From Planctomyces sp. (lineage in GTDB: Bacteria; Planctomycetota; Planctomycetia; Planctomycetales; Planctomycetaceae), in assembly GCA_027483405.1 (NCBI GenBank), contig JAIXUU010000025.1, positions 11,072-75,071 of the forward strand: a stretch of 64,000 bases of DNA, read 5' to 3'. The position numbers and the translations under genes were made by a program. This document shows, piece by piece, positions 2,366-47,538 of this stretch; position 1 is the stretch's first letter, and every line of letters begins with the position of its first letter. The notes below the pieces were generated by a model that was not told where the DNA came from, searched no databases, and saw nothing but the letters and a program-made list of their open reading frames with translations.

Positions 2366-3496
2366 TTAACGGACTTCGGTCTTCGCAGGGTTCTCTGCCT
2401 GACGAGTTGATTCTGAGGACTTATCGGGCAGGGCCTGAACGAGACGTTGCACATCGGTCCGTCGAAGAACTTGCTCGGTTCGCATGTAACGACGTGGGTT
2501 CTCTTTGAATCGATCACGCGATTCGCGAGAAACGAAGAGGAAGAGACTGTCATCATAAAACGCTGCGAACTGAGTTGAACCACTGACGGCTTTGGTTGTG
2601 TCCCACAAGACGACGGGGTCACATCCCAGAAGTTTCGGTGCAAACTGTTCGGGGGTCAGTTTGAAATCGGCCAGCTCTTGTTCTGTAGCCATGAAGTAGG
2701 TGATTCCCTGATGATCCCACGCGAAACGGCTGTCACCTCGCATCCATTGTCTGGCTCTTTGCAATGCCACCGGACTGAAACCATCCAGTCCAACGTCATC
2801 AGCATTGGCCATCGATTGTGATGGAGCCGATTTTCGCTCAAAGTTCTGATTCCCGGGAAGTGTTGCCGGTACTTTGTTCTGCATCCTTTGAGTCGGTGCA
2901 GCTTGGGCCAGGCTCATCGAGTATTTTTGAGCCACTCCACCAATCATCGAAGTGTAAGCTCCGACATCGAGATAGTTCTCGGAATGCAGGAGAACCTTGC
3001 CATTTCGAGGATCGATCATGACATCGGCAGGCAACCCCCGGACGCCATATTGTTGAACGAGCTGTGGATTCTGATCGGAGTCAACTTTCACAGCAGCCAC
3101 AGAAGTGCGCAAAAGCTGTTGAACTTGGGGATGAGGAAAGACACCCCGCTCCATCTGTTGGCATGGCCCGCACCAGGTAGCTGAGAAATGCAGCAGCACA
3201 GGTTTGTTCGTGCGGCTGGCTTCCTGGAGTGCTGTGTTATAGCTGCCCAGCCAGACACTTCCCTGCCCTCCCTGTGGATGTCCTCCCTGAGGATACTGCG
3301 CCCAGGCCGATTGTCCTGTGATGAAGACCATGAGAACCAGACCCATCGATCGCAGTCCCTTCTGGAAGGCCACGATTGTGTTGGAACAGATGTAGGACTG
3401 TGCATCCTGGCTCGAACGGTGCAGACATGAAGAGAGCATGAGTGGGCGGCTCCGAAGACAAATCCGTTTTGCAGCATTCGCACTGCAACCACTCAA
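2366..3496 (-). CDS. Exported thioredoxin-family protein with C-terminal YHS-like domains (true start possibly 3346)
   Basis: FSATWCGPC active site after a signal-like hydrophobic segment; C-terminal GLDGFSPVAL...G..Y.F and LGCDPV..F.F.S repeats. Confidence 0.75.
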   Translation of the reverse strand: MSGCSANAAKRICLRSRPLMLSSCLHRSSQDAQSYICSNTIVAFQKGLRSMGLVLMVFITGQSAWAQYPQGGHPQGGQGSVWLGSYNTALQEASRTNKPVLLHFSATWCGPCQQMERGVFPHPQVQQLLRTSVAAVKVDSDQNPQLVQQYGVRGLPADVMIDPRNGKVLLHSENYLDVGAYTSMIGGVAQKYSMSLAQAAPTQRMQNKVPATLPGNQNFERKSAPSQSMANADDVGLDGFSPVALQRARQWMRGDSRFAWDHQGITYFMATEQELADFKLTPEQFAPKLLGCDPVVLWDTTKAVSGSTQFAAFYDDSLFLFVSRESRDRFKENPRRYMRTEQVLRRTDVQRLVQALPDKSSESTRQAENPAKTEVR

Positions 3497-3703
3497 CCTT
3501 GCCTCATGAAAAAGTTGCCGCCGTCAGGAAGTTTCTTCGGTGAAGAGAAAGTCGAGAGAACTCGACGGAGACTGAGTTCTGCTCTCTTTAAGGGCGCTTT
3601 GCCGCATAAGTAGAATTGGAAGTCTGGGTAGAGTTTGACGACGGCGGATGGTGTTTGGCTTCTAACGGGATGTTCTTGAGAAGGATCGATTCAGAAGCAT
3701 TCT

Positions 3704-4381
3704 TCACCAGAAGACAGCCGCTCTGCCTGCCACGGAATTCCCTGTTTCTGGTGGGTGGGACTCAACTTTTGATTCGGCAAGATGATTTGACGATGGAAGT
3801 TTGGCCAGGCTTAGGAAGTTGGACAATAATCGGTGGCCACCTTGTGTCAGTATCGATTCCGGATGAAATTGCACGCCAAAAGTGGCATGGGTTCGGTGGC
3901 CAACGGCCATGAGCACGGGGGTATCGTGAGGTGCGTCGAGAGTCCATGCCAAAGGCTCCAGTTCGTCTGGTAAATCATGATGATCAATCACCAGTGAGTG
4001 ATAGCGGCCAGCTTGAAAAGTTTCTGGCAGACCATGGAACAGAGCGTGGCCATGATGAGTGACGCTTGATGCTTCTCCATGGAGGGGACGATGTGCCCGC
4101 ACGACTTTGCCGCCAAAGGCGGCACCAATCGCCTGATGCCCCAGACAGATGCCGAGTATGGGAATCTTCCCTGATAGTTGCTTGATGACTTCCAGAGAAA
4201 TCCCCGCTTCTGTAGGTGAGCATGGGCCAGGTGAGATGACAATGGCAGACGGGGCCATTTCGATGATCTGGTGGATCGAAAGGACATCATTTCTGACGAC
4301 ACGAACGTTCTGGCCAAGCTCGACCAGATAGCGGGCGACGTTCTGGACGAAGCTGTCATAATTGTCGATGATCAGCAGCAT
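3704..4381 (-). CDS. pabA: Aminodeoxychorismate/anthranilate synthase component II (glutamine amidotransferase)
   Basis: MLLIIDNYDSF, SPGPCSP, GICLGHQ, RYHSL, GVQFHPES; adjacent to component I. Confidence 0.9.
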   Translation of the reverse strand: MLLIIDNYDSFVQNVARYLVELGQNVRVVRNDVLSIHQIIEMAPSAIVISPGPCSPTEAGISLEVIKQLSGKIPILGICLGHQAIGAAFGGKVVRAHRPLHGEASSVTHHGHALFHGLPETFQAGRYHSLVIDHHDLPDELEPLAWTLDAPHDTPVLMAVGHRTHATFGVQFHPESILTQGGHRLLSNFLSLAKLPSSNHLAESKVESHPPETGNSVAGRAAVFW

Positions 4382-4488
4382 GTGGCACTTATCAGGCGTG
4401 GTCTATGGGTGGTCTATGGCGATCAGCGGGCATCATGAAAATAGCATCTCTTGCACTTCAAACGGAACAGTTTGACGCAAATGGATCT

Positions 4489-5925
4489 TTACGCACTCGA
4501 ATGGGATCGAGTCAGAGCCGCGAGCATTCCAGAGGCTTTGGTTAATGTTTCCTCGAACTCTTGAACAGGGTCGGAATTGACGACAATCCCGCCCCCAACT
4601 CCCAGTTGCAGCCAGCCCTCGCTCGCAATGAATGTGCGAATGAGAATACTGCTGTCGCACCAGAGATCGGGGGTCATGTAGAACAATGTTCCTGTGTAAG
4701 GGCCTCGTGTGGTGGGTTCCAGTTCAGCAATGATTTCCGTCGCTCGAACTTTCGGTGCTCCCGTGATCGAACCACCGGGAAAACAGGCTCGAAGGGCGTC
4801 CCAGGAGTCAAAAGACTCGGAGAGTTCTCCCGTGACAACACTCACGAGATGTTGAACAGTCCGATAGGTTTCCACTTCGCATAATGCAGGAACGTTCACG
4901 CTGCCGGCACAACAAACTCGCGAGAGATCGTTCCTCAGCAGATCCACAATCATCACATTCTCGGCCACATCCTTGCGGCTTTCTCGCAATTCGTCGCGTA
5001 GAAATAAATCCGCTTCAGCACCTTGCCTCCGGCGTGTCCCCTTGATGGGGCGTGTCTCAACGCTTTGCTTTTCGATCTTGAGAAATCGTTCGGGAGAAGC
5101 ACTCAATAACGACCATTTGGGCCTTTGCCAAAATGCCATGAATGGCGAGGGATTGTGCTGACGGAGCCTCTCCCAGATCTGCAGGCTGGGTATGGTTTGT
5201 GGAGTCAATAGACGCTGAGTCAGGTTGGCCTGAAAGATGTCGCCGGCCCGGATGTACTCGATCACACGATCTACAGCCTGAAGATAATCCTCCCTGCTAA
5301 AGTTACTCCAGATGTTGTCGTGTCCAGCTAATGCAAACGACGGTGCAGAGAGGCTTTCCAAAGAGCGATAGCTTATGTCTCCCTTTGGAGGAATCTGAGG
5401 AGTTAGATCAGTGACCTTCTGCTCAAGCAAATTCATAAATTGACGTGCCCGCGCTGTCGCCCTTTTTGCACGAGCTGCCGGTTCGATTTCGGGCCAGCCT
5501 TGAGAGATCAACCAACCTCGATTCTCAATATGATCCCAGGCAAAAACGACATCGTAAAAACTCATCGAGAAATCTGGGATGAGAAAGTCGCGATGTCTGG
5601 CTGACGGCATGCGATCAAACGCCCGACCGGCTTCATAAGAAAGCACCCCGGCGAAGCCACCCTGAAAAGGAGGAAGTTCCGGCTGACGCTCGAATGGCAG
5701 ATTCTTCATCACCTCGGCGATGGGGCTCAAAGGATCTGTTGATGGTTGGACGTTGTATTCATCGCTTAATGACCAGGGGTCGGCCATGACATACGAGTAT
5801 CTGCCCAGATGGGCGTGTTGAACAGCACTTTCGAGTACGCACAGTGCATTGAGTGACGCCAGTCGATGGGTCACGAATTGGGGGTGCATTTCCGCAATCA
5901 AGGGAATGACAACAGGGGGGATCAT
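4489..5925 (-). CDS. pabB: Aminodeoxychorismate synthase component I
   Basis: GDIFQANL, SASPERF, TRPIKGT, AENVMIVDLLRNDL, FPGGSITGAPK (the PabB form), GVGGGIV. Confidence 0.9.
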   Translation of the reverse strand: MIPPVVIPLIAEMHPQFVTHRLASLNALCVLESAVQHAHLGRYSYVMADPWSLSDEYNVQPSTDPLSPIAEVMKNLPFERQPELPPFQGGFAGVLSYEAGRAFDRMPSARHRDFLIPDFSMSFYDVVFAWDHIENRGWLISQGWPEIEPAARAKRATARARQFMNLLEQKVTDLTPQIPPKGDISYRSLESLSAPSFALAGHDNIWSNFSREDYLQAVDRVIEYIRAGDIFQANLTQRLLTPQTIPSLQIWERLRQHNPSPFMAFWQRPKWSLLSASPERFLKIEKQSVETRPIKGTRRRQGAEADLFLRDELRESRKDVAENVMIVDLLRNDLSRVCCAGSVNVPALCEVETYRTVQHLVSVVTGELSESFDSWDALRACFPGGSITGAPKVRATEIIAELEPTTRGPYTGTLFYMTPDLWCDSSILIRTFIASEGWLQLGVGGGIVVNSDPVQEFEETLTKASGMLAALTRSHSSA

Positions 5926-7391
5926 GCAGGACGTTCCTCCTGTCTTTGATTTTCTAAGGTCATGTCGTCATATCGATCCTGCTGCTGACGCCGTTCTTGC
6001 TTACGACGTTCTGTAGCACTGATTTCTGGTTCGGTGAGAAATCCCCAGCGGAGAGATTGATCCTGCTGATAATGTTTGCCAAGTGTTAATGCGGTCTTGG
6101 CTTTGCAGAGTTCGTAGCCAAGGTAAAAGGCATGTTCGGCAGTCAAAGTTCCCACACAGGCGATCATCCGATCATAGACTTCGTATGGGTCATTGCCATG
6201 CCAGTATCCATCGCGATTAAACAAGTGAATCTCGCCCCGCTCGGCAAAAATGCGAAAGTTCGGGTCTGTGACAAGCTGTCTTAAATGTGTCAGGCCTGCT
6301 TCGCCCTGCTCTTTCAGTTTAGGGTCCCGCAGAAGAACAAGGCTTCCGCCCAGATGCTTGGGCACCCGTTGTTGTTCAATTGCGAAATGAGTCAGCCGCC
6401 GGGCAATCTCAAACTCCCGAATGGAAGATCGACTCCAGTTGATCACTTCGGTTGTCAGGATGCTTTCAATCCGCCACTCGGTACATAAGGCTGCCAGAAG
6501 AAAGTTGACACCTGAACTGTCCACTTCGGTCATCTCTGTCAAGTTCCCGACCCCCATCATCATTTTGTCAGCGGGGAACTGCTGGCGTATTTGCCGATAG
6601 CGATTGATGGATTCTCCAAATCCAAATCCGATGGGTTCCAGAATGGGGTCGAGTCGAAAAGGAGTCCCTGAACTGAGAAATGCCTCGCGAGTGGTAACGA
6701 GCGTCTCCAGATTCTGAGGATGATCAGGAACCAGGACAAATTCGGCATTGGTCGATTGGGCCCAATCGCGGTTCGATGAATTGGCACTTAAGACAAGTTT
6801 GACTCCCGAGGCGACAGCCCGCTGGACTTCGTCTTGTGAGAAACTGTCGATCGATAGTCGGAAGCCGTGGCGATGAAGCGTTTGAATGGTGGTTTCGAGT
6901 TCGGGCCAGGCCACACCCGGAAGGCAACCGAGATCAATCACGTCAGCACCTGATTCGCGATAAGACTCCGCTTGCCTCAGAATCTGATCCAGAGAGAGTC
7001 GGGGGGCGTGATTAATCTCGGCGAGTATTTGAATTGTATGTTGCGTGAGATCTGGTGGCGTCTTTTGATCCTGCCCAAAGAATTCCGGCAGGTCAAACAG
7101 ATCTTTCGGGCCGCGAATGACCGGGAATCCCAGAAACTCATTCAGTGAATTCAATTCCCCTTCGACTGATCCGGGAAGGATTGCCTGATCAAATACACTG
7201 TACTCAAGGAGTGATTCTTTGAGTTTTCGCAGAATCCATGGTGTGGTCATCAGTGCTGCGACAGTGATCCCCAACACGCGAATCTCAAATTCAAAATTGG
7301 CTTTTTGAGAAAGGGGAAGGAGTGTCTGGCGCAGCGAATGCTCTGCCAGTTTTCCAGTGATGAACAGCAATCGTGGACGAGGTTTTTCCAA
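5922..7391 (-). CDS. Dihydropteroate synthase-related pterin-binding protein (Orf20/DUF6513-DUF4346 type; methanopterin-pathway associated)
   Basis: N-terminal LFITGKLAE, TIM-barrel GADVIDLGC and SIDSF, GVGNLTEMTEVDSSGVN, C-terminal HAFYLGYELCKA..AL..GK.Y.QD; overlaps pabB by 4 nt. Confidence 0.8.
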   Translation of the reverse strand: MEKPRPRLLFITGKLAEHSLRQTLLPLSQKANFEFEIRVLGITVAALMTTPWILRKLKESLLEYSVFDQAILPGSVEGELNSLNEFLGFPVIRGPKDLFDLPEFFGQDQKTPPDLTQHTIQILAEINHAPRLSLDQILRQAESYRESGADVIDLGCLPGVAWPELETTIQTLHRHGFRLSIDSFSQDEVQRAVASGVKLVLSANSSNRDWAQSTNAEFVLVPDHPQNLETLVTTREAFLSSGTPFRLDPILEPIGFGFGESINRYRQIRQQFPADKMMMGVGNLTEMTEVDSSGVNFLLAALCTEWRIESILTTEVINWSRSSIREFEIARRLTHFAIEQQRVPKHLGGSLVLLRDPKLKEQGEAGLTHLRQLVTDPNFRIFAERGEIHLFNRDGYWHGNDPYEVYDRMIACVGTLTAEHAFYLGYELCKAKTALTLGKHYQQDQSLRWGFLTEPEISATERRKQERRQQQDRYDDMTLENQRQEERPA

Positions 7392-7468
7392 GACGAGGTC
7401 ACGTTATTCCAAAAGAAATTCAACGGAATTCAGCACAGCCGATTTTGACTCTGAAATCGATCATTCTA

Positions 7469-8251
7469 TCATCGAACTGCACCACCGTTGACGTTAATCA
7501 CTTGTCCGGTGATAAAAGAGGCCTCTTCGCTGACCAGAAATCGAACTGCCCGAGCGATATCTTCTGGCAATCCCCATCGTTTCAGCGGGGTTTCTCGCAT
7601 GACCCGCTCTTGCCAGACCGGGCTGGCGGTTTCTCCCCAGGCGGTTTTGATCCATCCGGGAGCGACACAATTCAAGCGGACTTCAGGGGCAAAACTGACT
7701 GCCATCGAACGGGTGAAACCCATGACGGCATTCTTGGCTGCTGCGAAAAGTTCACCACTTTCCCCCTCCATGCCTCGATCTGCCTGATCCCAGCCGATGT
7801 TGATAATGCACCCTTTGCCCCGAGATTTCATACGCATGGCGATCGCGCGGGAAAGCTGATACGTTGCACGCACATCAACTGAGTGCAAAAGATCAATTTT
7901 ATTGATGGCTGGGAGGCGAGCCTCTTCGGTCGTGAGGAGATCCACCCCGGCATTATTGACCCAGATGTCAATCGATCCCATTTCTGACCATGCTTGTTCG
8001 GCCAAAGATTCGACCGCATCGTTGTTCCGCAGGTCTGCCTGAAAAATATGCGTTGTCCCTCCTTTTGAGAGGATCGACTTTCGGATTTGCTCTATTGAAT
8101 TGATCGATTTTCGAGAGTGTAAGCCGACCGTGGCCCCTGCCTGAGAAAGTTCCAGAGCAATTGCCTTTCCAATACCAGATGAACTCCCGGTGATGACTGC
8201 ATTCAGCCCGTGTAAGCTGCAGAATGCTTTCTTTTCAGGCATATTTGTCAT
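7469..8251 (-). CDS. SDR-family oxidoreductase with atypical active site (FxxxK instead of YxxxK)
   Basis: TGSSSGIG, WVNNAG, NCVAPGWIKT, ITGQVINVNGG. Start trimmed to MTNMPEK (the ORF track starts at 8362). Confidence 0.88.
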   Translation of the reverse strand: MTNMPEKKAFCSLHGLNAVITGSSSGIGKAIALELSQAGATVGLHSRKSINSIEQIRKSILSKGGTTHIFQADLRNNDAVESLAEQAWSEMGSIDIWVNNAGVDLLTTEEARLPAINKIDLLHSVDVRATYQLSRAIAMRMKSRGKGCIINIGWDQADRGMEGESGELFAAAKNAVMGFTRSMAVSFAPEVRLNCVAPGWIKTAWGETASPVWQERVMRETPLKRWGLPEDIARAVRFLVSEEASFITGQVINVNGGAVR

Positions 8252-8943
8252 CGCTGACGTGCTCCACTGGGGAAGAAAAACCTCATGAAAAGACCATGAG
8301 AACGGAATCATAACAGGCAGCGAACATATCCACACAACAGAGTGTCCACATGTGTGGCACACAATCTGCTGCTAAAGTTAGATGTTGGAACAGAAAAGAT
8401 GATCTGTCACAAATTCAGTGATCGTTTATGAAGGTGTTTTAACATCAATCGCGGCAGAGATTTACATTTCTACCACTTTTGGGAGAAATGCTTGTTGTGG
8501 CGAGAGTGTTGTTGACGGACTGTCCTCCAGGTTGCAAAATACGTTGGAGGAACAATCAGTCATGCGACATATTTAGGAATACTGATGTTCGTTTGGCAGA
8601 TTTCATGTAATGGGATAATCTGAAATCGCTAAATCCTTGCAAGTGTTTTGAGCAACTGTAAGGCAATGGTCTCGGGAAATGCTGAATAAGTGTGAACAGA
8701 CCTGCTGAATTGCTGCAGGTGAGCTCAACAGATCAATATAAATTGTTGTGTGGGTTCATCGAAATTGGTGTGAAGACTGAGATTGTGGTTCTGGTTTTTT
8801 GATCGATGTGTTTGATTCCAGGCACCAAGTTAACTCTGAGTGCTGATGGATTTGGAATAGTAAAACTTTGACCTGACTGATTTCACCCGCCGAATGGATC
8901 GGCGTCACTCAGTCATGGTCCTTTTAAGTAGAGAGCGAATATA

Positions 8944-9339
8944 ATGATTTCGAACGTTGCCGAACCTTTGGTCGAAAAAGGTTCATCCTTCCCCGATCTG
9001 TCGACTCAGCTTGAGAAAGACCTCGTTCAGGTCTTTAAGCTGTTGGCCGATGAAACTCGCCTGCGTATCCTGATGTATCTGATGAAAGATCAGGAATTGC
9101 ATGTGACTGCCCTCTGCGAGCGCCTGGGTCAGAGCCAGCCAGCAGTCAGCCATCACCTGGCTTTACTCCGCGTAGCTGGTCTGATTGAAGCCCGTCGCGA
9201 TGGTAAGCACAATTTCTACAGTGTGCGCCAGAAGCATTTCCACCGCATTATGGCTGAACTCTTCTCCAGCATTGGAGATGGCGAGCGTGACCGAATCCGC
9301 TTCAAGAACTTCGTGCTGTCACAGGAAGAGAACGCCTAA
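8944..9339 (+). CDS. ArsR/SmtB-family transcriptional regulator
   Basis: FKLLADETRLRIL, SQPAVSHHLALLR, RRDGKHNFYS. Confidence 0.9.
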   Translation: MISNVAEPLVEKGSSFPDLSTQLEKDLVQVFKLLADETRLRILMYLMKDQELHVTALCERLGQSQPAVSHHLALLRVAGLIEARRDGKHNFYSVRQKHFHRIMAELFSSIGDGERDRIRFKNFVLSQEENA

Positions 9340-9467: not shown

Positions 9468-9575
9468 ACATTCATGATCGCGATACGCTTTAATAACGCT
9501 TGGAATCTGTGTGATGTATTGAACTTGATCAAAGCCATTTTTTAAGGCTTTCCAGGAAAGGTGAGGCGCTGTCTG

Positions 9576-10727
9576 ATGTCCCAAGAGGCTAAGTCTTCAG
9601 CTTGTCTGGCATTGGCAGACGGATCCGTTTTTTTTGGCTCTGCGTTCGGTGCCTCGGGTGAGGTCACTGGCGAAGTGGTCTTTAACACAAGTATGACAGG
9701 TTATGGCGAAATTCTGACTGATCCCTCCTATTGCGGTCAGATCGTGACGATGACCTACCCGCTAATCGGGAATTACGGCATCAACTTCGAAGATGTGGAA
9801 AGCAATGGTCCTCGTCTGAGGGCTTTTGTGGTTCGGGAATTGTGCCGATCCCCAAGTAACTTTCGTTCAGAGCTTTCTCTGGATGATTATCTTCGCAAAG
9901 CCGGAGTTATTGGCCTCGAAGGGATCGATACCCGCTCGCTGGTTCGCCGCTTACGCAGCCAGGGAGCTGTCACGGGAGTGCTTTCGACTGTCGATCTCGA
10001 TCCACAGTCGCTTATTGCCAAAGCCCAGGCTGCCCCCAGCATTGTTGGTCAGGATCTTGTTCAGGAGGTCATGCCCGCTGCGAGTTTTGCCTGGACTGAA
10101 AAGCTGGGGAATTTCGCGACGCTGGCTCCGCAGGATTCCCAACCCACCCGCTATCACGTCGTCGCAATTGATTACGGCATGAAGTGGAATATCCTGCGAC
10201 ATCTGACCCAGGTTGGTTGTCGTGTGACGGTTGTCCCGGGCACTTCCACGGCAGCAGAAATTCTGGCTTTGCAACCGGATGGGGTCTTTTTGTCGAATGG
10301 CCCTGGTGATCCTGAGCCGCTGACTTATGCGATTCGGACAATTCGCGACTTGCTGGGTAAACTCCCCATCTTTGGCATCTGCCTGGGACACCAACTCCTT
10401 GGACTGGCTGCTGGAGCGAGAACCTATAAGCTGAAATTCGGTCATCGTGGTGCGAACCAGCCCGTGATGAATCTGCGGAACTCGAAAGTCGAGATTACCT
10501 CGCAGAATCACGGTTTTGCGATCGATGCTTTGACTTTGCCAGCGAATATCGAGGTCACTCACCGGAATCTGAATGATCAGACAATCGAGGGGATGCGACT
10601 GACCGATCAACCCGCTTTCAGTGTGCAGTATCATCCTGAAGCTGCTGCGGGGCCACATGACAGTGCTTATCTGTTCGAAGAGTTTTGCAGCCTGATGGAT
10701 CTGTCGGTCGAGAAAACGAAGGCTTGA
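9576..10727 (+). CDS. carA: Carbamoyl-phosphate synthase small subunit
   Basis: [47 protein letters not shown]. Confidence 0.97.
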
Positions 10728-10887: not shown

Positions 10888-11352
10888 ATGCCTACGGAAC
10901 GTACTCTTGTCCTGCTGAAGCCAGATGCTGTTGCCCGACGCCTGGCAGGGCCGATTCTCACTCGTTTTGAGCAGAAGGGCCTACGCATCGCAGCTCTGAA
11001 GCTGATTCAGGTTACCCCGGAACTGGCCAAGAGGCACTATGCCGAACATGTCCAGAAGCCATTTTATCCTATGCTCGAAAGCTTCATTACTGCTGGCCCG
11101 ACAGTGGCTTTGGTTCTCGAAGGCAAGTCAGCGATTAGTGTTGTTCGAGGCATGATGGGTCCGACCAATGGTCGCGATGCCGCCCCGGGAACCATTCGTG
11201 GCGATTATGGGACGAGTCGGCAGATGAACCTTGTTCATGGAAGTGATGGCCCCGAAGCTGCCGCGAAGGAAATCGCGATCTACTTTCAGCCGCATGAAGT
11301 GGTGGATGCCACTGAGCCACTTGCGCCATGGTTGTCGGCTGGTGACGAGTAA
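10888..11352 (+). CDS. ndk: Nucleoside diphosphate kinase
   Basis: [27 protein letters not shown]. Confidence 0.97.
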
Positions 11353-20372: not shown

Positions 20373-21257
20373 TCAGCGCGGAACTTTGGAAATCAGTTCC
20401 AGAGGATTTGCACTCTGGTCAATCATTTCCAGTGTCTCGTGAGCGAGCGTCGCATCAGCCTCTTCCCGAGGATCGAGAATTTGAGCTCGTCTATGCCGAT
20501 GTGCCGGCGATTGTTCACAGTACGGGCAAGATTCTGTGTAGATGACCCTGCGGCAATGAGCACATTCATGGACGCCAAAGACCGGAATTGCAGCACTCAG
20601 ACGCTGATAGATAAAGTAACCAAAAGTAAAGATCACGAAGGCAATCAGCAGTAATGTGGCCAGCCAGTGACGCTCCCACAGAAAGCTCCACAACGTTGTG
20701 ACCAATGCAAAGCAGCAGAGACTGTAGAGTGCGATGTCGAGCAGACGCCGTCGATTGAATCGAATTCTGGCCAGTTCGCGATTGACGCGATGGCCGAATT
20801 TCTGCCGGAGTGCATCGACCTTTTCGTCTTCCAACTGAGTCGCCCGCTGGGTGTGGCCTGTCGCCACCAATAACCGCTGAACGCTATCGAGCACTCGGTA
20901 GGCATCGTCTTCAGTGAGAAACGACTGATGAGCTAACTGATTACGAAACTCACGCAGTTCGCTGATCAGGCTCCGTTCAAAAATTCCCAACTGATGGCGA
21001 AAGCAGTGATTCCACTGTTCCCAGACCACATTCAGCAAAATGTGTGGATCTGACAGCGGATCCGAAAATCTGGCAGAGGCCATGTTTCGATCACCGCGAA
21101 TCTGCGCAAGAATGACTTCTTCGACTCGATGTCCATACGACTTGCTCAATTCCTGTCGAATGAATGGAGTCCACTCTTCGACGAGGATTTCGAGGGCCAG
21201 ATGGATGCGATCGGCAGGTGTGGGCACGATGAAGACTTTACTGCGACAACGTCGCAC
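20373..21257 (-). CDS. Swt1-like HEPN domain protein with two TM helices and a C-terminal Cys4 zinc ribbon
   Basis: D...LLNV.WEQWN..F and ELREFRNQLAH (RxxxxH); two hydrophobic helices; CAHC-x8-CPYC. Confidence 0.75.
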   Translation of the reverse strand: MRRCRSKVFIVPTPADRIHLALEILVEEWTPFIRQELSKSYGHRVEEVILAQIRGDRNMASARFSDPLSDPHILLNVVWEQWNHCFRHQLGIFERSLISELREFRNQLAHQSFLTEDDAYRVLDSVQRLLVATGHTQRATQLEDEKVDALRQKFGHRVNRELARIRFNRRRLLDIALYSLCCFALVTTLWSFLWERHWLATLLLIAFVIFTFGYFIYQRLSAAIPVFGVHECAHCRRVIYTESCPYCEQSPAHRHRRAQILDPREEADATLAHETLEMIDQSANPLELISKVPR

Positions 21258-21498: not shown

Positions 21499-22821
21499 TC
21501 AGGCGAGCTTCAGCTCGGGAAAATGAGTCGTCAGTTGAGACCAATGCTCTGCGCATTGTCGGCGGGCATCGGCAATCGAAGAACCCCATCCGAAGAGGGT
21601 GCAAACCGGGTATCCACTGGAAATGAGACTTCCAGGAATCGGGATGTCGGCAATCACAGGAAGAAGTTTCGCTTGTGGAATTGCTGGTTGATTGGACCTG
21701 AGAGCATGCGAATTCAACCAGAGAGTACGCAAATCCGGCGCATGAAAGGCTTCCCCTGCATAGACGACCTGCTTGCAACCGAAGTTGGGGCGCTGCAAAT
21801 GATCCCCACCTGCTGTTTTTTTCCCGGAAGTTGCGGACGCATCTCTAAAACAAGGTGGCATCAATTCGCTCTGCCAGGCCCTGAGATGCAGATCCATCAG
21901 CGATGCGGGATGGCCGACTGTTCCTTCCAGAATTTCACAACTCGCCGTGTAGCGCGGATTGATTTCGATCGGTCGCCACGACTCATCGCAGCGAATGCCA
22001 TCAATTCCCAGAATTCCTGACAGGCCAGTCGCTTTGACAATCGCGTTCGCCAGTGAACAGGCCAGTTCATCGATGGCTGGGGGAACAGTGATCGGGCCCA
22101 CGGAGCCGCGATAACCATATTTTCCCCAGGGAGTGCCGATCAGACCTTCAGTCCAGCCGATTCTCTCCACACAGCTGGAACTCGCCATGAAGATGCAGCT
22201 TTGCGGAACCCCATGGACGTTTTCCTGCAGGTATTCAAGCTCATCAAGCGAATGATGGAAGCTCTCTTCGGTAATATTGGCTTGAGAAACATCGCGAACA
22301 TTGAACCCTCCTCCGGAGTGCAGCGGTTTACGAATCCACTCTTGAATCTGGTAGGGATCGACTTTTGTAGCTTGTCGTGATGCGGACGTTGCGAAATGTC
22401 CGGGAAGGATGACTGCCAGCGGATTTCCACCGATACTGGCGAACGTTTCCTGCAGAAAGCGGGGATCACGAATCCGTTTGAGAAGCTGAGGTGTAACTCC
22501 AAGGAGAGGAATCGAGCACTTGTCAGCTTGCTCGAAGAATTTGACAGCATCTGCGGGCCAGTTCTCAAATGGGCCCGTGTAGGTCCAACCTTGCACGTGT
22601 TCGACATGGGTGGGATCCAGAGACCAATTCTCTGTTTCTGCGGGAAGTGACTGCCAGATCGATGACTCTTGAAGATCCAGATCTCCGTACTGGTCATAGG
22701 CGATAACTTGCCACCCGCCACGCTGAGCCGAGGCCGCTGCAGCACGCACACTTCCCCCTGCGATCAGAATTTTGGGGGTCGTCTGCATGGAGATTACATT
22801 TCTTGAATTGTGGTTCGGCAT
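21499..22821 (-). CDS. ATP-grasp protein of the COG2232/Orf9 type (H4MPT/methanofuran-pathway associated)
   Basis: ILIAGGSVRAAAASA.R.G..V.A.DQYGDLD, RKP..SGGG, YLQENVHG, GIDGI, IEINPRYTAS, D.P..G..I..G.PVCT. Confidence 0.75.
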   Translation of the reverse strand: MPNHNSRNVISMQTTPKILIAGGSVRAAAASAQRGGWQVIAYDQYGDLDLQESSIWQSLPAETENWSLDPTHVEHVQGWTYTGPFENWPADAVKFFEQADKCSIPLLGVTPQLLKRIRDPRFLQETFASIGGNPLAVILPGHFATSASRQATKVDPYQIQEWIRKPLHSGGGFNVRDVSQANITEESFHHSLDELEYLQENVHGVPQSCIFMASSSCVERIGWTEGLIGTPWGKYGYRGSVGPITVPPAIDELACSLANAIVKATGLSGILGIDGIRCDESWRPIEINPRYTASCEILEGTVGHPASLMDLHLRAWQSELMPPCFRDASATSGKKTAGGDHLQRPNFGCKQVVYAGEAFHAPDLRTLWLNSHALRSNQPAIPQAKLLPVIADIPIPGSLISSGYPVCTLFGWGSSIADARRQCAEHWSQLTTHFPELKLA

Positions 22822-32665: not shown

Positions 32666-33427
32666 CTAGGGCTGGAAAACCCTAGCCCTATGAAAGCGAA
32701 TGGCCTCTGGGTCCGGTCGGAACCTGGATGGTAAGGCGAGTGGAACTCCCTCAAGTTGATCCAGTGAGCACTTCAGCTTCGCGTCTGACACGTTGTCGAT
32801 CAGGCGTCGTGAAACGATGACACGCAAGTTGTCATCCAGCGAAAACAATCCCCGGTCGAACGCTCGGTCTAAAAGTGCGTTGAGACACAAACCATTACGG
32901 GGGTCGGCACGACGCTCAACGGATTCGCTCCACGGAATGATGTGACTCGCCGTGAGAAGTTCGGCACCAGCGACACCTGAGATGGCGCATGTGGAGTTGT
33001 AGGTGGTCAACACGGCGGCCCGGAAGAACGACTGAACCCGGCGAGCTCGCACGGTTCGCTCGATGTCGGTCGGGCCCGTCGGCAGGCAGAGTTCGGGCAC
33101 ATGGGAGTTATCAGCAACTGCAATTCGTTCTGCGGCCTCTTCCGCTTCCGCAGCAAGGCCTTCAGCGTTGTTTAAAAACTCCATCCAGATTTCGCGATCG
33201 GCTTTACTGAGATTCGACAAACCACGAATTCCACGGGCTTGAAGCTCGGGATCAAGGTTCGCGAAGTTGCATGCCTTCATCGTCAGAGCATTGGGTGTGC
33301 GGCCAATGAGTTCTGCGACTTCAATGATCTCCGGGTGGTTGTGATGCAACTTCCCAAATGGCAGTCGAATATAAAGACGAAGTGCCAAAAGAAGTTGATC
33401 ACGAGTCCAAAGATCAGAGCGAGCCAT
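32666..33427 (-). CDS. HNH endonuclease (HNH_2-type, putative modification-dependent restriction enzyme)
   Basis: Helical N-terminal domain plus R..QSFFR..VL..Y...CAISG, ASHIIPWS, DPRNGLCL...DRAFDRG. Confidence 0.85.
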   Translation of the reverse strand: MARSDLWTRDQLLLALRLYIRLPFGKLHHNHPEIIEVAELIGRTPNALTMKACNFANLDPELQARGIRGLSNLSKADREIWMEFLNNAEGLAAEAEEAAERIAVADNSHVPELCLPTGPTDIERTVRARRVQSFFRAAVLTTYNSTCAISGVAGAELLTASHIIPWSESVERRADPRNGLCLNALLDRAFDRGLFSLDDNLRVIVSRRLIDNVSDAKLKCSLDQLEGVPLALPSRFRPDPEAIRFHRARVFQP

Positions 33428-42679: not shown

Positions 42680-42708
42680 TTGACGTTTCGGTGCCATGCA
42701 GGCATATT
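42680..42708 (+). promoter_or_regulatory. Candidate sigma70-type promoter of the metal ABC operon
   Basis: TTGACG (42680-42685), 17-nt spacer, CATATT (42703-42708). Confidence 0.45.
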
Positions 42709-42718
42709 GAAAATAATG

Positions 42719-42734
42719 TTTTGAGTAATCAAAA
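42719..42734. promoter_or_regulatory. Candidate DtxR/TroR-type operator (6-4-6 palindrome)
   Basis: TTTTGA-gtaa-TCAAAA lies between the predicted -10 and the start codon of an operon encoding DtxR-domain fusions. Confidence 0.45.
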
Positions 42735-42744
42735 ACGCTGTGAA

Positions 42745-43803
42745 ATGGTTATGTCCGCCTGTTTGACTCTTTCCCGCCGAGAATTTTTCCCCTGGCTGGC
42801 TCTGCTGTCGGGGTGTTCGACAGGGTTGAGCAGTCCACCATTAAGTCGACCTGCCAGTATTGTGGCCTCTACGGGAATGGTAGGTGATCTGGTTCGTGAA
42901 CTGGTTCCGTCCTCCCTGGGGGAAGTAACCACATTGATTCGCCCCGGCGTCGATCCCCACCTGTATCGACCCACACGGGCCGACTTACTGAAGGTGCTGA
43001 ATGCACGTCTGATTTTCAGTTCGGGGCTGCATCTTGAAGGGAGAATGGATGCCCTGTTTGAGCGAGCGGATCGACCGGGTCGCCCGTCGATTGCCATTTC
43101 GAGTGACATTCCCAAAGACCAGATCATTTATCCCGATGACCACTCGGGTCGTCCAGATCCGCATTTGTGGATGGATGTGAGCCTGTGGCGAGCAACTCTG
43201 GGGCTGATTTCTCGAACCTTGAAAGATGTTTTTCCAGAGGCTCAGGACGAAATTGCCAGACGAGAAGCCCAACTTTCCGACGTGCTGGCCCGTCTTGACA
43301 AAACTGTTGAGGAGATGGTGGCCTCGATCCCGGAACCTCAGCGATTGCTGGTCACCTCTCATGATGCCTTTGCCTATTTTTCCAGGCGTTATCACATCCC
43401 TGTCGAATCGATTCAGGGAGTGACGACAGATTCTGAACCTGGCGTGGCAGATATTGATCGCCTCGTCGATATCATCACCAGCCGTAAACTGCCGGCAATT
43501 TTTACAGAATCCAGCGTGAATGATCGTGGTTTGAGGGCTGTCGTTGAAGGCGTAAAGGCCCGAGGTCATGATCTTATTCTCGCTGGGCCGCTCTATACAG
43601 ATGCCTTGGGAGAGCCAGGTTCCCCGGCAGATACCTATGTCGGCATGATGCTGGAAAATGCCCGCCAGATCGCGTCCATCCTGGGAGGATCAACTGCTCC
43701 CCTCGATCGCTGGACTGAATCATCTGGCAATACTCACAGCAGCTCCCGGTGTCTTTTCAAATCGCTGAGCCCAGCGGTGAAAATGTGCGAGGTAGACCAC
43801 TGA
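42745..43803 (+). CDS. Mn/Zn/Fe ABC transporter substrate-binding lipoprotein (TroA/MntA type)
   Basis: SRREFF...LLSGC signal; GVDPHLY, DPHLW, TSHDAF.YF, YTDALG (His3-Asp ligand set). Confidence 0.92.
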
Positions 43804-43805
43804 TC

Positions 43806-44594
43806 ATGAATGCCGAGAATTCTCCACCAGATTCACCGCTTGTCATTCATGATATGACGGTGGCTTACGGCCGAAAGCCTGTGCTCTGGAATATTGACTA
43901 TGTCTCACCCAGTCGAAAACTGATCGCGATTGTTGGCCCCAATGGGGCTGGCAAAAGTACCCTATTGAAGGCGGCTTTGGGTTTGATCCCCCGGCAGAAT
44001 GGAGAGGCTCTGTTTTTTGGCCAGCCTTATCAGAAGGTTCGACAAAAAGTGGCCTATGTTCCGCAGCGATCCAGTGTGGACTGGGATTTCCCGATCAGTG
44101 CCCTCGAAGTGGCGGCCATGGGCTGTTACGGACGTATGGGGTGGTTTCGCCCAGTGAATCGCGATGCCAAAAATACGGCTTTGGCAGCTCTCGAACAGGT
44201 CGGTCTGGGAGATGTGGCCAGACGTCAGATTGGTCAACTTTCTGGAGGCCAGCAACAGCGGGTGTTTCTTGCCAGAGCCCTGGCTCAGGATGCCGATCTT
44301 TATCTGATGGATGAGCCGTTTGCTGCCGTCGATGCCACGACTGAGCAATCGATTGTGGCCATGCTGCAGGCATTGAGAGATCGAGGCAAGACGACGATTG
44401 TCGTGCATCATGATCTTCAAACTGTCTCGGAATACTTTGACGAAGTGCTGTTACTGAACTTGCGGCTGATTGCAGCGGGAGCGGTTTCCGAGGTGTTGAC
44501 GCCTCAAAATCTGAAGGCCACATACGGTGGTCAGCTTTCCATTCTGGATGCAGTGGGCCAGCGGATGTCAGCGAGACAATCCGTGACCAGTTAG
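43806..44594 (+). CDS. Metal ABC transporter ATP-binding protein (TroB/MntB type)
   Basis: [40 protein letters not shown]. Confidence 0.95.
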
Positions 44595-44671
44595 AGTTTC
44601 CAGGCGATTGAGTTCCGCTGGATCAATTCCAGTTAATCGATCAGTTCTTTGAATTTGCTTCAGCCAGAACG

Positions 44672-46111
44672 GTGATTGTCAAGACGATGTTTTCCATGAG
44701 TTATAACGCTCTGCTGGTGCTTTCGGGCACAATGCTCTTAGGGGCGTCGTGCGGATTGATGGGCGTTTTCTTGACTTTGCGGCGTCAGGTTCTGCTGAGT
44801 GATGTGATCAGTCATGCCGCTTTACCCGGCGTGGCGATGGCGTTCCTTTTGGGGTTATGGCTGGCCCCTGAAAAAGCAGGCACACTTCCGTGGCTGGTCG
44901 GTGGATCGATGTTCGCTTCGGGGGTTGCCGTCCTGATCTGTTTTGCACTTCAGCAGGTCAAACCTCTCTGGGGAGAAGCGGCTTTTGGCATTCCGCTGGG
45001 TGGATTTCTCGCACTGGGAGTTGTCTTCTTTTCGATCATTCAGCAGGTTCCTTCAGGAAATGCGGCTGGACTCGAGGGCCTGCTCTTCGGAAGAGCGGCA
45101 GCTCTTTCGAGCACCGATGTGCTCCTGTTGGGCGGGTTGGCAGGGATCGTCGTGATTGTCTGTCTGCTGTTACGAAAAGAATTGCTGCTGATCGCTTTTG
45201 ATCGGGAATTTGCCATTGCTCAGGGATTGCCTGTCGCTTTGCTGGATATGTTGCTGACTGGGATGACAGCTGCCATTTGTGTGCTGGCTCTGCCGATGGT
45301 GGGGTTTTTACTGGTGGTGGCATTGATGGTGACACCGGCTGCAGCGGCGCGGTTCTGGTCTGATCGACTGGGACTGATGATCCCGGTTTCTGTAATGCTG
45401 GGGATGGTGTCTGCAGGGCTGGGAACACTGATCAGCGGTCAGCTGGAGTATGTTCCGACAGGGCCGGCGATTGTCCTCTGTGCCACAATGTTCTTTGCGA
45501 TCAGTGTCTGCTTTGGCTGGTCACATGGCGTTGTCTACCAGTGGTGGAGTCGTCGATTGCTGAAGCAGGAGCAGTTGCTGGACGACCTGTTGCGAAGTAC
45601 CTACGAAGAATTCGAAGCGGCAACGGCGAAACTCCATTCTCCAACGATGGCTCCAGCGGAAACTGGTCAACAAGACTTGAATCAACAGTCGCTGGACAAG
45701 CGTTTGAGCGGTGTTCATCCATGGGCCGGGGCCCCGGAAGAATTCTGGTTGCATCAGGAGGTTTGCTTTCCGAAATCGATACCCACGAAAGATCTGTCGC
45801 TCCTTAAACAGAATGCAGTGAATCGAGGCTGTTTAAGAATCGATAGTGCGGGTCAATGGCGAATGACTGAACTGGGCTGGCAGAAAGCGAAGGCTGTTGT
45901 TTTGCGACATCGCCTGCTGGAATTGTATTTGATTGAACATGCTGAATTTCCTCCGGCTCAAGGTGATCGGACTGCCGACCTACTGGAACATGCTCTGGGG
46001 CCGCACACCGTCGATGAACTGAAGATCCTGCTTCGAATTGACTTTGGGCAAGGGGTCATTCGCAGTCCCCATCCGTTGGAAGCGACGTCAATTCGTGAAG
46101 TTTCTCCTTGA
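44672..46111 (+). CDS. Metal ABC permease fused to a C-terminal DtxR/MntR-like domain
   Basis: SDVISHAALPG, L.G.LFG, P.AAAR, GP.IV; tail MTELG...VLRHRLLELYL...LEH...SPH. Confidence 0.9.
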   Translation: MIVKTMFSMSYNALLVLSGTMLLGASCGLMGVFLTLRRQVLLSDVISHAALPGVAMAFLLGLWLAPEKAGTLPWLVGGSMFASGVAVLICFALQQVKPLWGEAAFGIPLGGFLALGVVFFSIIQQVPSGNAAGLEGLLFGRAAALSSTDVLLLGGLAGIVVIVCLLLRKELLLIAFDREFAIAQGLPVALLDMLLTGMTAAICVLALPMVGFLLVVALMVTPAAAARFWSDRLGLMIPVSVMLGMVSAGLGTLISGQLEYVPTGPAIVLCATMFFAISVCFGWSHGVVYQWWSRRLLKQEQLLDDLLRSTYEEFEAATAKLHSPTMAPAETGQQDLNQQSLDKRLSGVHPWAGAPEEFWLHQEVCFPKSIPTKDLSLLKQNAVNRGCLRIDSAGQWRMTELGWQKAKAVVLRHRLLELYLIEHAEFPPAQGDRTADLLEHALGPHTVDELKILLRIDFGQGVIRSPHPLEATSIREVSP

Positions 46112-46161
46112 AAACAACTGTGATGAAATTGCCAACCTTGATTGTGACATGAATTAAATCC

Positions 46162-47538
46162 ATGGAGTTACTGACACAAATCCTGCAGGCACTTTCCACC
46201 TGGTGTCTGATTGATACCTGGATGGTGGTGATGGCTGCATTGGTGGCCATGGCTTGTGCTATTCCGGGCTCATTTCTGGTTTTGCGCAGGCAGTCCTTAC
46301 TGGCCGATGGCGTGAGTCATGCTGCTTTGCCGGGCGTAGTCGTGGCATTTCTCTTGAGTGGATTATTACCAGCCGGAAGTGGCTGGAGTGTGGTCATTCT
46401 TTTAGCGGGAGCAGCAGTTTCAGGGATACTGGCTTCCGTCCTGATTGAACAACTGCAGAAATTGCGAACGATCCACGCAGATACCGCTTTGGGCATTGTT
46501 TTTACTACATTGTTTGCTGTAGGCCTGCTGCTGTTAAGAACACTGGCCGATCGAATTCATCTCGATCCGGCCTGTATTGTGTTTGGCAATCTGGAGGTTG
46601 CAGTCGTTGAGACCTTTGCAGGAACCAGCCTCCCCATTGGTGTTGTAGTGGCCTTGGTGACGTTGGTTCTCAATCTGACCTGTCTATCGCTCTTTTATAA
46701 AGAACTGCTGATCTCGACGTTTGATACCGTGTTCGCTGAGTCGATAGGAATCGCCGCTTCCCGTGTTCAACTCCTGCTGGCGGTGCTGGTGGCGGTGACA
46801 ATTGTGGGGGCGTTTCAAACGGTGGGAAGTCTGCTGGTCTTGGGGATGCTGGTGATTCCCCCTGCCACAGCGAGGCTGCTGACATACCATTTTCCATCGA
46901 TGATACTGCTGTCGATGGGCATTGGATTGTTTTCGGCTGTGATGGGGCATGTGTTGGCCATCAGTCTCGTTGGCCCACTGCTGGCGTCTATTGGTGTGGA
47001 CGGGATAGAAGCTGTCAGTACAAGTGGCATGATGGTTCTCGTGGCCAGTGGATGCCTGCTGCTGGCGCTCCTGTTGAGTCCCGAATATGGAGCGTTGAGC
47101 CGGCTGGGTCAGCAGATGCGTACCCAGATGCGAATTGCAGAAGAAGACCTGCTGGCGGTCCTCTATCGATTGGAGGAGGCCGGCCGACAGGTTTCGACGA
47201 AAGATCTGGCATCTCTGGTGGCGGAATCGACAGGGCAGCCCGCCTGGAGAATCTGGGCCGCAAGTCGGCAATTGATCAGGAGAGGAGCCATGTCATACGA
47301 AGATCAACATTATGTGCTGACTGAGATTGGCCGTCAGGGAGGGCGACAGATCGTGCGTGCACATCGACTCTGGGAGACATTTCTGGCTCAGCGATTGGGT
47401 TTACGCCCCGAGCAATGGCACGATAATGCCAGCCGAGCGGAACATTACATTTCTTCGGAACTGCGTCATGAACTTTCGAACGATCTGATGCGACCCGATC
47501 AGGACCCTCAAGGTCGGCAGATTCCACCTGAAAGTTGA
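46162..47538 (+). CDS. Second metal ABC permease fused to a C-terminal DtxR/MntR-like domain
   Basis: ADGVSHAALPG, VG.LLV..ML.IPPA.AR; tail EEDLL..LY...LTEIG...IVRAHRLWETFL...H..A...EHY...DPQG..IP. Confidence 0.92.
   Translation: MELLTQILQALSTWCLIDTWMVVMAALVAMACAIPGSFLVLRRQSLLADGVSHAALPGVVVAFLLSGLLPAGSGWSVVILLAGAAVSGILASVLIEQLQKLRTIHADTALGIVFTTLFAVGLLLLRTLADRIHLDPACIVFGNLEVAVVETFAGTSLPIGVVVALVTLVLNLTCLSLFYKELLISTFDTVFAESIGIAASRVQLLLAVLVAVTIVGAFQTVGSLLVLGMLVIPPATARLLTYHFPSMILLSMGIGLFSAVMGHVLAISLVGPLLASIGVDGIEAVSTSGMMVLVASGCLLLALLLSPEYGALSRLGQQMRTQMRIAEEDLLAVLYRLEEAGRQVSTKDLASLVAESTGQPAWRIWAASRQLIRRGAMSYEDQHYVLTEIGRQGGRQIVRAHRLWETFLAQRLGLRPEQWHDNASRAEHYISSELRHELSNDLMRPDQDPQGRQIPPES

Follow-up and report, generated by a model that had tools for sequence, protein, structure and literature searches.

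In bacteria outside the lineage studied here, dihydromethanopterin (H2MPT) is converted to tetrahydromethanopterin (H4MPT) by DmrA, which has the dihydrofolate reductase (DHFR) fold, or by the flavoprotein DmrB/AfpA. Here, we analyze a short-chain dehydrogenase/reductase (SDR) that lacks the catalytic Tyr of its superfamily and whose gene heads a run of pterin-related genes in a 64-kb stretch of contig JAIXUU010000025.1 from Planctomyces sp. (hereafter the window, along which all positions are numbered). DmrA is almost exclusive to alphaproteobacteria, and DmrB/AfpA derives from archaeal DmrX (Burton et al. 2018, PMC6193120); an Afp/DmrB gene has not been recognized in Planctomycete genomes (Chistoserdova 2016, PMC5020050). 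The latter report bears out the gap on which the original prediction for this locus was built, namely that the SDR is a dihydropterin reductase filling the DmrA/DmrB step. Orthologs of DfrA, the true DHFR, have been reported in planctomycetes (Burton et al. 2018, PMC6193120), and therefore a folate reductase need not be missing. The Methylosinus island reads orf19-orf20-afpA-orf21-orf22, pcbD sits with mptG, and pabB has been described as [quoted passage not shown] (PMC3615186). The proteobacterial reductase gene thus lies beside orf20, a position matched by the Tyr-less SDR gene beside its orf20-type gene. Because pterin-4a-carbinolamine dehydratase (PCD) and pabB genes both occur with the H4MPT genes of methylotrophs (PMC3615186), they are established companions of this pathway. 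Our literature search returned no paper pairing an SDR with dihydromethanopterin and none mentioning DUF6513.

The window SDR resembles several described enzymes, each in part. Like DmrA of Methylorubrum, a member of the DHFR family, it is proposed to catalyze NADPH + H2MPT -> H4MPT and to hold the same place in the pathway, but the folds are unrelated. The proposed pathway role also likens it to DmrB/AfpA and archaeal DmrX, and afpA adjoins orf20 in Methylosinus as the SDR gene adjoins the orf20-type gene; those enzymes are FMN flavoproteins, whereas the window SDR is a predicted nicotinamide-dependent Rossmann protein. Trypanosomatid PTR1 and FolM (dihydromonapterin/dihydrofolate reductase) are alike in having the SDR fold, basic residues of the NADPH type after beta-2, and an Asp in the region of the catalytic Ser, as well as in the proposed hydride transfer to a pterin ring and the genomic link to pterin genes, including PCD. 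They keep the Tyr of YxxxK, whereas the window SDR has Phe for this Tyr, Asp for the Asn of the catalytic tetrad, and TGSSSGIG as its Gly-rich motif; PTR1 and FolM carry an Arg in that motif. Quinonoid dihydropteridine reductase (QDPR/DHPR) is likewise an SDR-fold pterin reductase paired with PCD, and PCD follows the SDR in many relatives of the window protein. DHPR, however, has an intact YxxxK, its substrates are the quinonoid dihydropterins of aromatic amino acid hydroxylation, and no hydroxylase gene was seen beside the window SDR. FabG and the glucose/ribitol dehydrogenases are the best matches, with the same length, Gly motif, NNAG, and PGxxxT; these enzymes use Asn-Ser-Tyr-Lys, whereas the Tyr-less family has Asp, an inserted Trp-Asp-Gln plus Ala at the Ser stretch, Phe, and Lys. 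Finally, FolB-FolK and FolK-FolP fusions join hydroxymethyldihydropterin pyrophosphokinase (HPPK) to an enzyme of the same pathway, as do the fusions described below, except that there the partner is the Tyr-less SDR.

The SDR is an intact, transcribed, and strongly conserved Rossmann protein that is genetically embedded in H4MPT synthesis and, in some lineages, fused to it. It very probably functions in H4MPT or pterin cofactor metabolism, and it is the best candidate so far for the missing pterin-reducing enzyme of the Planctomycetes. Our specific reading, to which we assign a probability of roughly one half, is that it may be an NADPH-dependent dihydro(methano)pterin reductase in which a Trp-Asp site replaces Ser and Tyr, with 7,8-H2MPT, the substrate of the missing Dmr step, as the simplest substrate. 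The pathway membership claimed by the original prediction is strongly supported by operons, fusions, and transcripts, and the particular conversion of 7,8-H2MPT to H4MPT is a step that we infer.

All four genes of the run lie on the minus strand in the order SDR > dihydropteroate synthase (DHPS)-like > pabB > pabA (Table 1), as had been noted, and the coordinates confirm that the pabB start and the DHPS-like stop overlap by 4 nt as ATGA. The longest possible SDR ORF extends to 8362, and the intergenic gap between the SDR and the DHPS-like gene is 77 nt in the window, without a PCD gene. On the DHPS-like protein, Pfam found DUF6513, Pterin_bind, and PterinBD-DUF4346; the TIGR00284 model ("dihydropteroate synthase-like") scored 186.2 bits, below its cut-off of 256.65, and our searches found no sequence-related solved structure. 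We provisionally take this TIGR00284-like protein to be the equivalent of Methylorubrum Orf20, and it presumably condenses hydroxymethyldihydropterin pyrophosphate (HMDP-PP) with beta-ribofuranosylaminobenzene 5'-phosphate (beta-RFAP). The pabB product carries Chorismate_bind (Pfam) and scored 320.7 bits against TIGR00553 (cut-off 328.4) and 363 against the TrpE model (cut-off 517.7); gene context favors a PabB identity over TrpE. The pabA product scored 220.9 against trpG_papA, above the cut-off of 121. The window derives from a Planctopirus-like planctomycete: its SDR shares 96% identity with the P. hydrillae protein, and its DHPS-like protein 96% with the P. ephydatiae homolog.

We compared this neighborhood across two sets of loci: the best 80 loci of 301 stretches with an SDR relative in a one-genome-per-species collection, and a metagenome set seeded from a 51%-identical SDR member, with 44 loci having at least 2 kb downstream. 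Of the 64 genome loci with at least 2.5 kb downstream, 20 have the DHPS-like gene next after the SDR and in the same orientation, and 2 more have it at another place in the locus. The synteny of the SDR with an orf20-type gene that had been proposed for testing was therefore found, and the link goes further than had been proposed: a pterin, p-aminobenzoate (pABA), or H4MPT gene adjoins the SDR in 29/69 genome loci and 34/44 metagenome loci. There are at least four pterin-linked arrangements, namely SDR>PCD>DHPS-like>pabB>pabA (the commonest linked arrangement in genomes), SDR>DHPS-like>pabB>pabA>DUF447>MptG, SDR>pabB>pabA, and HPPK-SDR. Among the 34 linked metagenome loci, 12 read HPPK>SDR, six carry the extended order ending in DUF447 and MptG, four read SDR>pabB>pabA, and in five PCD separates the SDR from the DHPS-like gene. 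Locus L089 reads SDR>DHPS-like>DUF447>beta-RFAP synthase; TIGR00144 identifies its final gene at 145.8 bits, above the cut-off of 113.5. [quoted passage not shown]

A PCD (Pterin_4a) gene directly follows the SDR in 19/69 genome loci, four of which have no DHPS-like gene nearby. PCD genes between the SDR and the DHPS-like gene lie, for instance, at L018:10795-11139 and L122:2268-2630, and in approximately 24 other related loci. Some distant high-GC relatives have single ORF calls covering both the SDR and the DHPS-like protein, with the same adjacency; these are probably frameshifted calls.

The pterin pyrophosphate used by the DHPS-like enzyme is the product of HPPK. In 23/23 HPPK-positive loci (L090-L168), a single unbroken frame of 406-573 codons encodes both HPPK and the SDR, with the SDR part C-terminal to HPPK. 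Pfam found a complete HPPK domain plus adh_short on four of these proteins (P0243, P0253, P0495, and P0512), all of which keep the Phe. The fusion proteins are about 405-420 aa long and are encoded on GC-rich, planctomycete-like metagenome contigs. One such locus on a long contig held no further pterin genes except for a chorismate-binding enzyme 6 kb away, and none of the papers returned by our literature search describes a fusion of HPPK with an SDR.

Transcription of the run was seen in two biofilm metatranscriptomes containing a relative that is ~92% identical, whose contigs cover 3904-8280. One contig (6664-7813) bridges the SDR/DHPS-like junction and another (5493-6033) the DHPS-like/pabB junction; RNA coverage ends at 8280 in both runs, with zero depth across 8284-9000. 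Because contigs cross the junctions and coverage stops at 8280, a single transcript starting just upstream of the ATG at 8251 is supported. The support for cotranscription is moderate, since it comes from assembled contigs of a relative. A promoter and terminator scan of 3300-9000 gave hits not above those of shuffled sequences (8 vs. 4.2 +/- 2.1 and 5 vs. 5.2 +/- 2.5, respectively).

The SDR keeps the cofactor motifs of its superfamily (TGSSSGIG, NNAG, and PGWIKT, a PGxxxT motif), and its informative stretches are VGLHSRKS, NNAG, IINIGWDQADRGMEGESGELFAAAKNA, and PGWIKTAWGE. Pfam assigned adh_short_C2 (PF13561, 163.5 bits, cut-off 27, 7.9e-48) and adh_short (PF00106, 126.6 bits, cut-off 26.6); only SDR-type Rossmann domains were found, with no DHFR domain. 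Residue equivalences were read from HMMER alignments to three solved FabG-type SDRs (2hq1, 3enn, and 3emk). F169 stands opposite the catalytic Tyr, K173 opposite the Lys of YxxxK, and D126 opposite the tetrad Asn; of the N-S-Y-K tetrad, Lys alone is retained and three of the four residues are replaced. The codons CTT TTC GCA GCA GCC AAG at 7733-7750 encode LFAAAK, and the earlier reading of GELFAAAK with Phe at the Tyr of YxxxK was thus exact. INIGWDQ (7784-7804) fills the catalytic-Ser stretch, as had also been noted. G-W-D-Q-A stands at the place of the catalytic Ser, and the loop before the Phe is a net two residues longer than in FabG-type SDRs. Depending on gap placement, the catalytic Ser falls opposite W154 or A157, with D155 in the same stretch and a loop model confidence (pLDDT) of ~72. 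The basic residues that had been noted after beta-2 (HSRK) are residues 45-48, directly behind that strand.

We assessed conservation in 250 full-length Phe-type family members, using 51 ordinary SDRs from the same searches as a contrast set. D126, W154, D155, G160, F169, and K173 are each present in 250/250 members, as are G22, G26, G28, and G102. Four Trp residues of the substrate loop (W200, W205, W213, and W226) are each kept in 240-247 of the 250, H45 is kept in 232, and positions 47/48 are mostly basic. Among the ordinary SDRs, 45/51 have Tyr at 169 and 31/51 have Asn at 126. Of the top 120 database relatives, the 105 with a readable motif all have Phe as well. When 1.8 billion cluster representatives were searched, a broad subfamily emerged with the signature [GS]-W-D-x(4)-G-x(8)-[FY]-x(3)-K-G-A, and 83 of the top 146 representatives carry the Phe. 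The source names on family members are all Planctomycetota (Planctopirus, Gimesia, Maioricimonas, Planctomicrobium, Schlesneria, Thalassoglobus, Pirellulaceae, and Thermoguttaceae). A compact planctomycete sister clade (P0259 and P0408-P0423; locus L170) keeps the Tyr, with the pattern FFGWDGVERGM.GDTA.LY..VKGA, and has D126 and the Trp-Asp motif in common with the Phe family. As judged from these alignments, the Phe is a family trait and not a lesion. The replacement residues are themselves invariant, which argues for a re-tooled active site instead of drift. We rejected a pseudogene or decayed enzyme, as all 250 relatives share the substitutions and transcripts of the gene were seen.

Under our reading, the SDR would stand in for DmrA and DmrB/AfpA in the H4MPT synthesis of Planctomycetota. 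Hydride would pass from NADPH to C6 of a 7,8-dihydropterin, which could be H2MPT or the dihydropterin-RFAP product of the neighboring enzyme, and the basic residues after beta-2 (H45 and R47/K48) point to NADPH as the donor. Asp155 may supply or position the proton at N5, a role played by a lone carboxylate in DHFR and by Asp181 in PTR1. Trp154 would stack on the pterin, and together with the Trp-rich loop it may sandwich the pterin and aminobenzene moieties. Such an imine reduction needs no Ser/Tyr oxyanion machinery, which would account for the loss of this machinery. The frequent adjacency of PCD suggests that the same enzyme might also re-reduce oxidized cofactor. An earlier intermediate could serve as the substrate as well, given the HPPK fusion and the place beside the DHPS-like enzyme.

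Several observations weigh against this reading. By sequence and fold, the SDR is a generic FabG/glucose-ribitol-dehydrogenase-like protein and not a member of the PTR1/FolM group. The pteridine reductase model NF006598 (cut-off 288) came sixth at 160.7 bits, with generic FabG and glucose dehydrogenase models ahead of it; the TmpR model NF012208 (bifunctional dihydropteridine/dihydrofolate reductase) reached 141.5 bits against a cut-off of 325. No NCBIfam model passed its threshold for the window SDR or ten diverse relatives, and the names of SDR cluster members gave nothing beyond "FabG" or "SDR." The AlphaFold2 model of the SDR is good overall (pLDDT 91.5, pTM 0.91), and its substrate loop (151-170) is the least confident part, at the ~72 given above. 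A Foldseek search of this model against the PDB returned FabG, glucose/ribitol dehydrogenase, and 7-alpha-hydroxysteroid dehydrogenase at a TM of ~0.8 (0.82-0.84 for FabG), in agreement with the PDB profile search, and the best solved sequence match was 2hq1 (1e-39). As NCBIfam, the PDB profile search, and Foldseek gave generic FabG-like matches only, we rejected a specific kinship with PTR1/FolM. The likeness to these enzymes implied in the original prediction was not borne out, as the family is no closer to them than to FabG by sequence or fold. Also unfavorable are the HPPK fusion and the DHPS-like adjacency, which suit an early step as much as the last one; the adjacent PCD, which suits a role in quinonoid-pterin recycling; and the Tyr-containing sister clade, whose single observed locus has no adjacent pterin gene, with serine hydroxymethyltransferase 5 kb off. 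The absence of DmrA, DmrB, and DmrX is taken from the literature and not from this genome. Lastly, 40 of the 69 closest species loci, Gimesia included, have no pterin gene near the SDR and keep only the ArsR-carA-ndk side; because of this, the linkage within Planctomycetaceae could partly be inherited gene order. That doubt is removed by the wider metagenome set, in which 34/44 loci are linked in several arrangements.

Among the alternatives, the SDR might act right after HPPK and the DHPS-like enzyme, either converting dihydropterin-RFAP to its ribityl form by reductive opening of the ribofuranosyl ring or reducing the ring of HMDP-PP or of the coupling product, in which case synthesis would proceed at the tetrahydro level. 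To our knowledge, no gene or enzyme has been assigned to the ribofuranosyl-to-ribityl opening in any organism, and for such a step the Trp-Asp site would be new to SDR superfamily chemistry. The position of the SDR gene immediately upstream of the cotranscribed DHPS-like gene fits this alternative, as does its place at the HPPK C-terminus, since in known folate-enzyme fusions the domain order is the pathway order; the missing Ser and Tyr argue against ordinary carbonyl chemistry. DUF447, which is widely conserved in H4MPT clusters and has a reported flavin-binding fold, is nevertheless an equally good candidate for ring opening, the sequence gives nothing that separates such a substrate from H2MPT, and the H2MPT reductase of Planctomycetes would still be missing. 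We consider this early step rather unlikely. A FolM- or DHPR-like role is also improbable, whether as an alternative dihydrofolate/dihydropteroate reductase, in pterin-aldehyde salvage feeding HPPK, or as a quinonoid-dihydropterin reductase working with PCD. It draws on the PCD genes directly after the SDR, including those without a DHPS-like gene nearby, on HPPK and pabB/pabA being common to folate synthesis, and on the pteridine reductase and TmpR models, which score sizeably though below threshold. Set against these are the methanopterin-specific beta-RFAP synthase and DUF447 in the extended operons, the absence here of the Tyr that aldehyde reduction normally needs, the DHFR orthologs reported in planctomycetes (PMC6193120), and the occurrence of PCD in methylotroph H4MPT islands as well, e.g. 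pcbD-mptG (PMC3615186).

The loss of three of the four tetrad residues, together with fusion or adjacency to would-be partner enzymes, could alternatively mean that the SDR is catalytically dead and, while still binding NADP(H), serves HPPK or the DHPS-like enzyme as a scaffold or regulatory subunit, like the inactive SDR subunits of some heteromeric ketoreductases. The invariance of W154, D155, D126, and F169 and the four near-invariant loop Trp residues form a re-tooled pattern instead, and the nicotinamide-positioning PGxxxT and the Lys are kept; a dead subunit is thus quite improbable. An SDR unrelated to pterins, i.e. a lineage-specific oxidoreductase whose neighbors reflect inherited Planctomycetaceae gene order, was already disfavored and is very improbable. 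For it speak the ArsR-carA-ndk neighbors, kept in 45/74 loci versus 20/64 for the DHPS-like gene, and other SDR contexts unrelated to pterins. Inherited synteny alone is unlikely to account for the in-frame HPPK fusions in 23 independent metagenome loci, the four distinct pterin-linked arrangements at ~50% protein identity, and a transcript contig covering the SDR/DHPS-like junction.

If the SDR does reduce H2MPT, it would join DmrA, DmrB, and DmrX as another, nonhomologous enzyme for this conversion. Such an SDR, reducing its substrate without the Ser, Tyr, or Asn, would also widen the notion of a functional SDR active site, and thousands of database labels reading "3-oxoacyl-ACP reductase FabG" would need correcting. 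The family is a clonable candidate with independent operon, fusion, and transcript support, and with it a long-noted gap becomes directly testable.

Table 1. Features of the SDR-headed gene run and the divergent regulator (window positions; the operon is read from the minus strand).
Feature	Position	Strand	Basis
SDR, 260 aa, first gene of the operon	7469..8251	-	ORF list, Pfam, alignments, AlphaFold2 model
SDR active-site segment INIGWDQADRGMEGESGELFAAAK	7733..7804	-	Codons and 250-member family alignment
W154 codon	7790-7792	-	
D155 codon	7787-7789	-	
F169 codon	7745-7747	-	
K173 codon	7733-7735	-	
D126 codon, site of the N-S-Y-K tetrad Asn in classical SDRs	7874..7876	-	Alignment to 2hq1, 3enn, 3emk
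DHPS-like pterin-binding protein, 489 aa, "Orf20/MptH-like" (TIGR00284 type)	5922..7391	-	Pfam, NCBIfam
pabB-like, aminodeoxychorismate synthase component I	4489..5925	-	Pfam, NCBIfam
pabA/trpG type, glutamine amidotransferase component II	3704..4381	-	Pfam, NCBIfam
Approximate 5' end of operon transcript	8252..8283	-	RNA coverage ends at 8280, two metatranscriptomes
ArsR/SmtB-family regulator, divergent from SDR	8944..9339	+	Pfam, NCBIfam, neighbor counts

The divergent ArsR gene is the most conserved neighbor of the SDR, kept beside it more often than the DHPS-like gene is. The regulator may control the operon, or it may simply share conserved gene order with carA (9561-10727) and ndk (10888-11352), which accompany it in the window. 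On the other side, a thioredoxin-fold protein with a C-terminal YHS domain (2366-3496, minus strand) lies downstream of pabA and recurs there in many related loci.

Pfam scanning of the window ORFs of at least 200 aa found no H4MPT C1-transfer genes and no known Dmr types among them, and no flavodoxin-like FMN domain of the DmrB/AfpA/DmrX type in these ORFs or in the SDR. ATP-grasp ligases act in methanopterin and methanofuran synthesis; the window encodes a 440-aa ATP-grasp_3 protein (21499-22821, minus strand) with no NCBIfam match. A metal-uptake cluster (42691-47538, plus strand) comprises ZnuA, an ABC ATPase, and two tandem ABC-3 permeases, each of which carries a fused C-terminal DtxR-type Fe_dep_repr_C metal-binding domain. 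A Swt1-like HEPN-domain protein (20373-21257, minus strand) and an HNH_2 endonuclease-domain protein (32666-33427, minus strand) may be remnants of defense systems or mobile elements.

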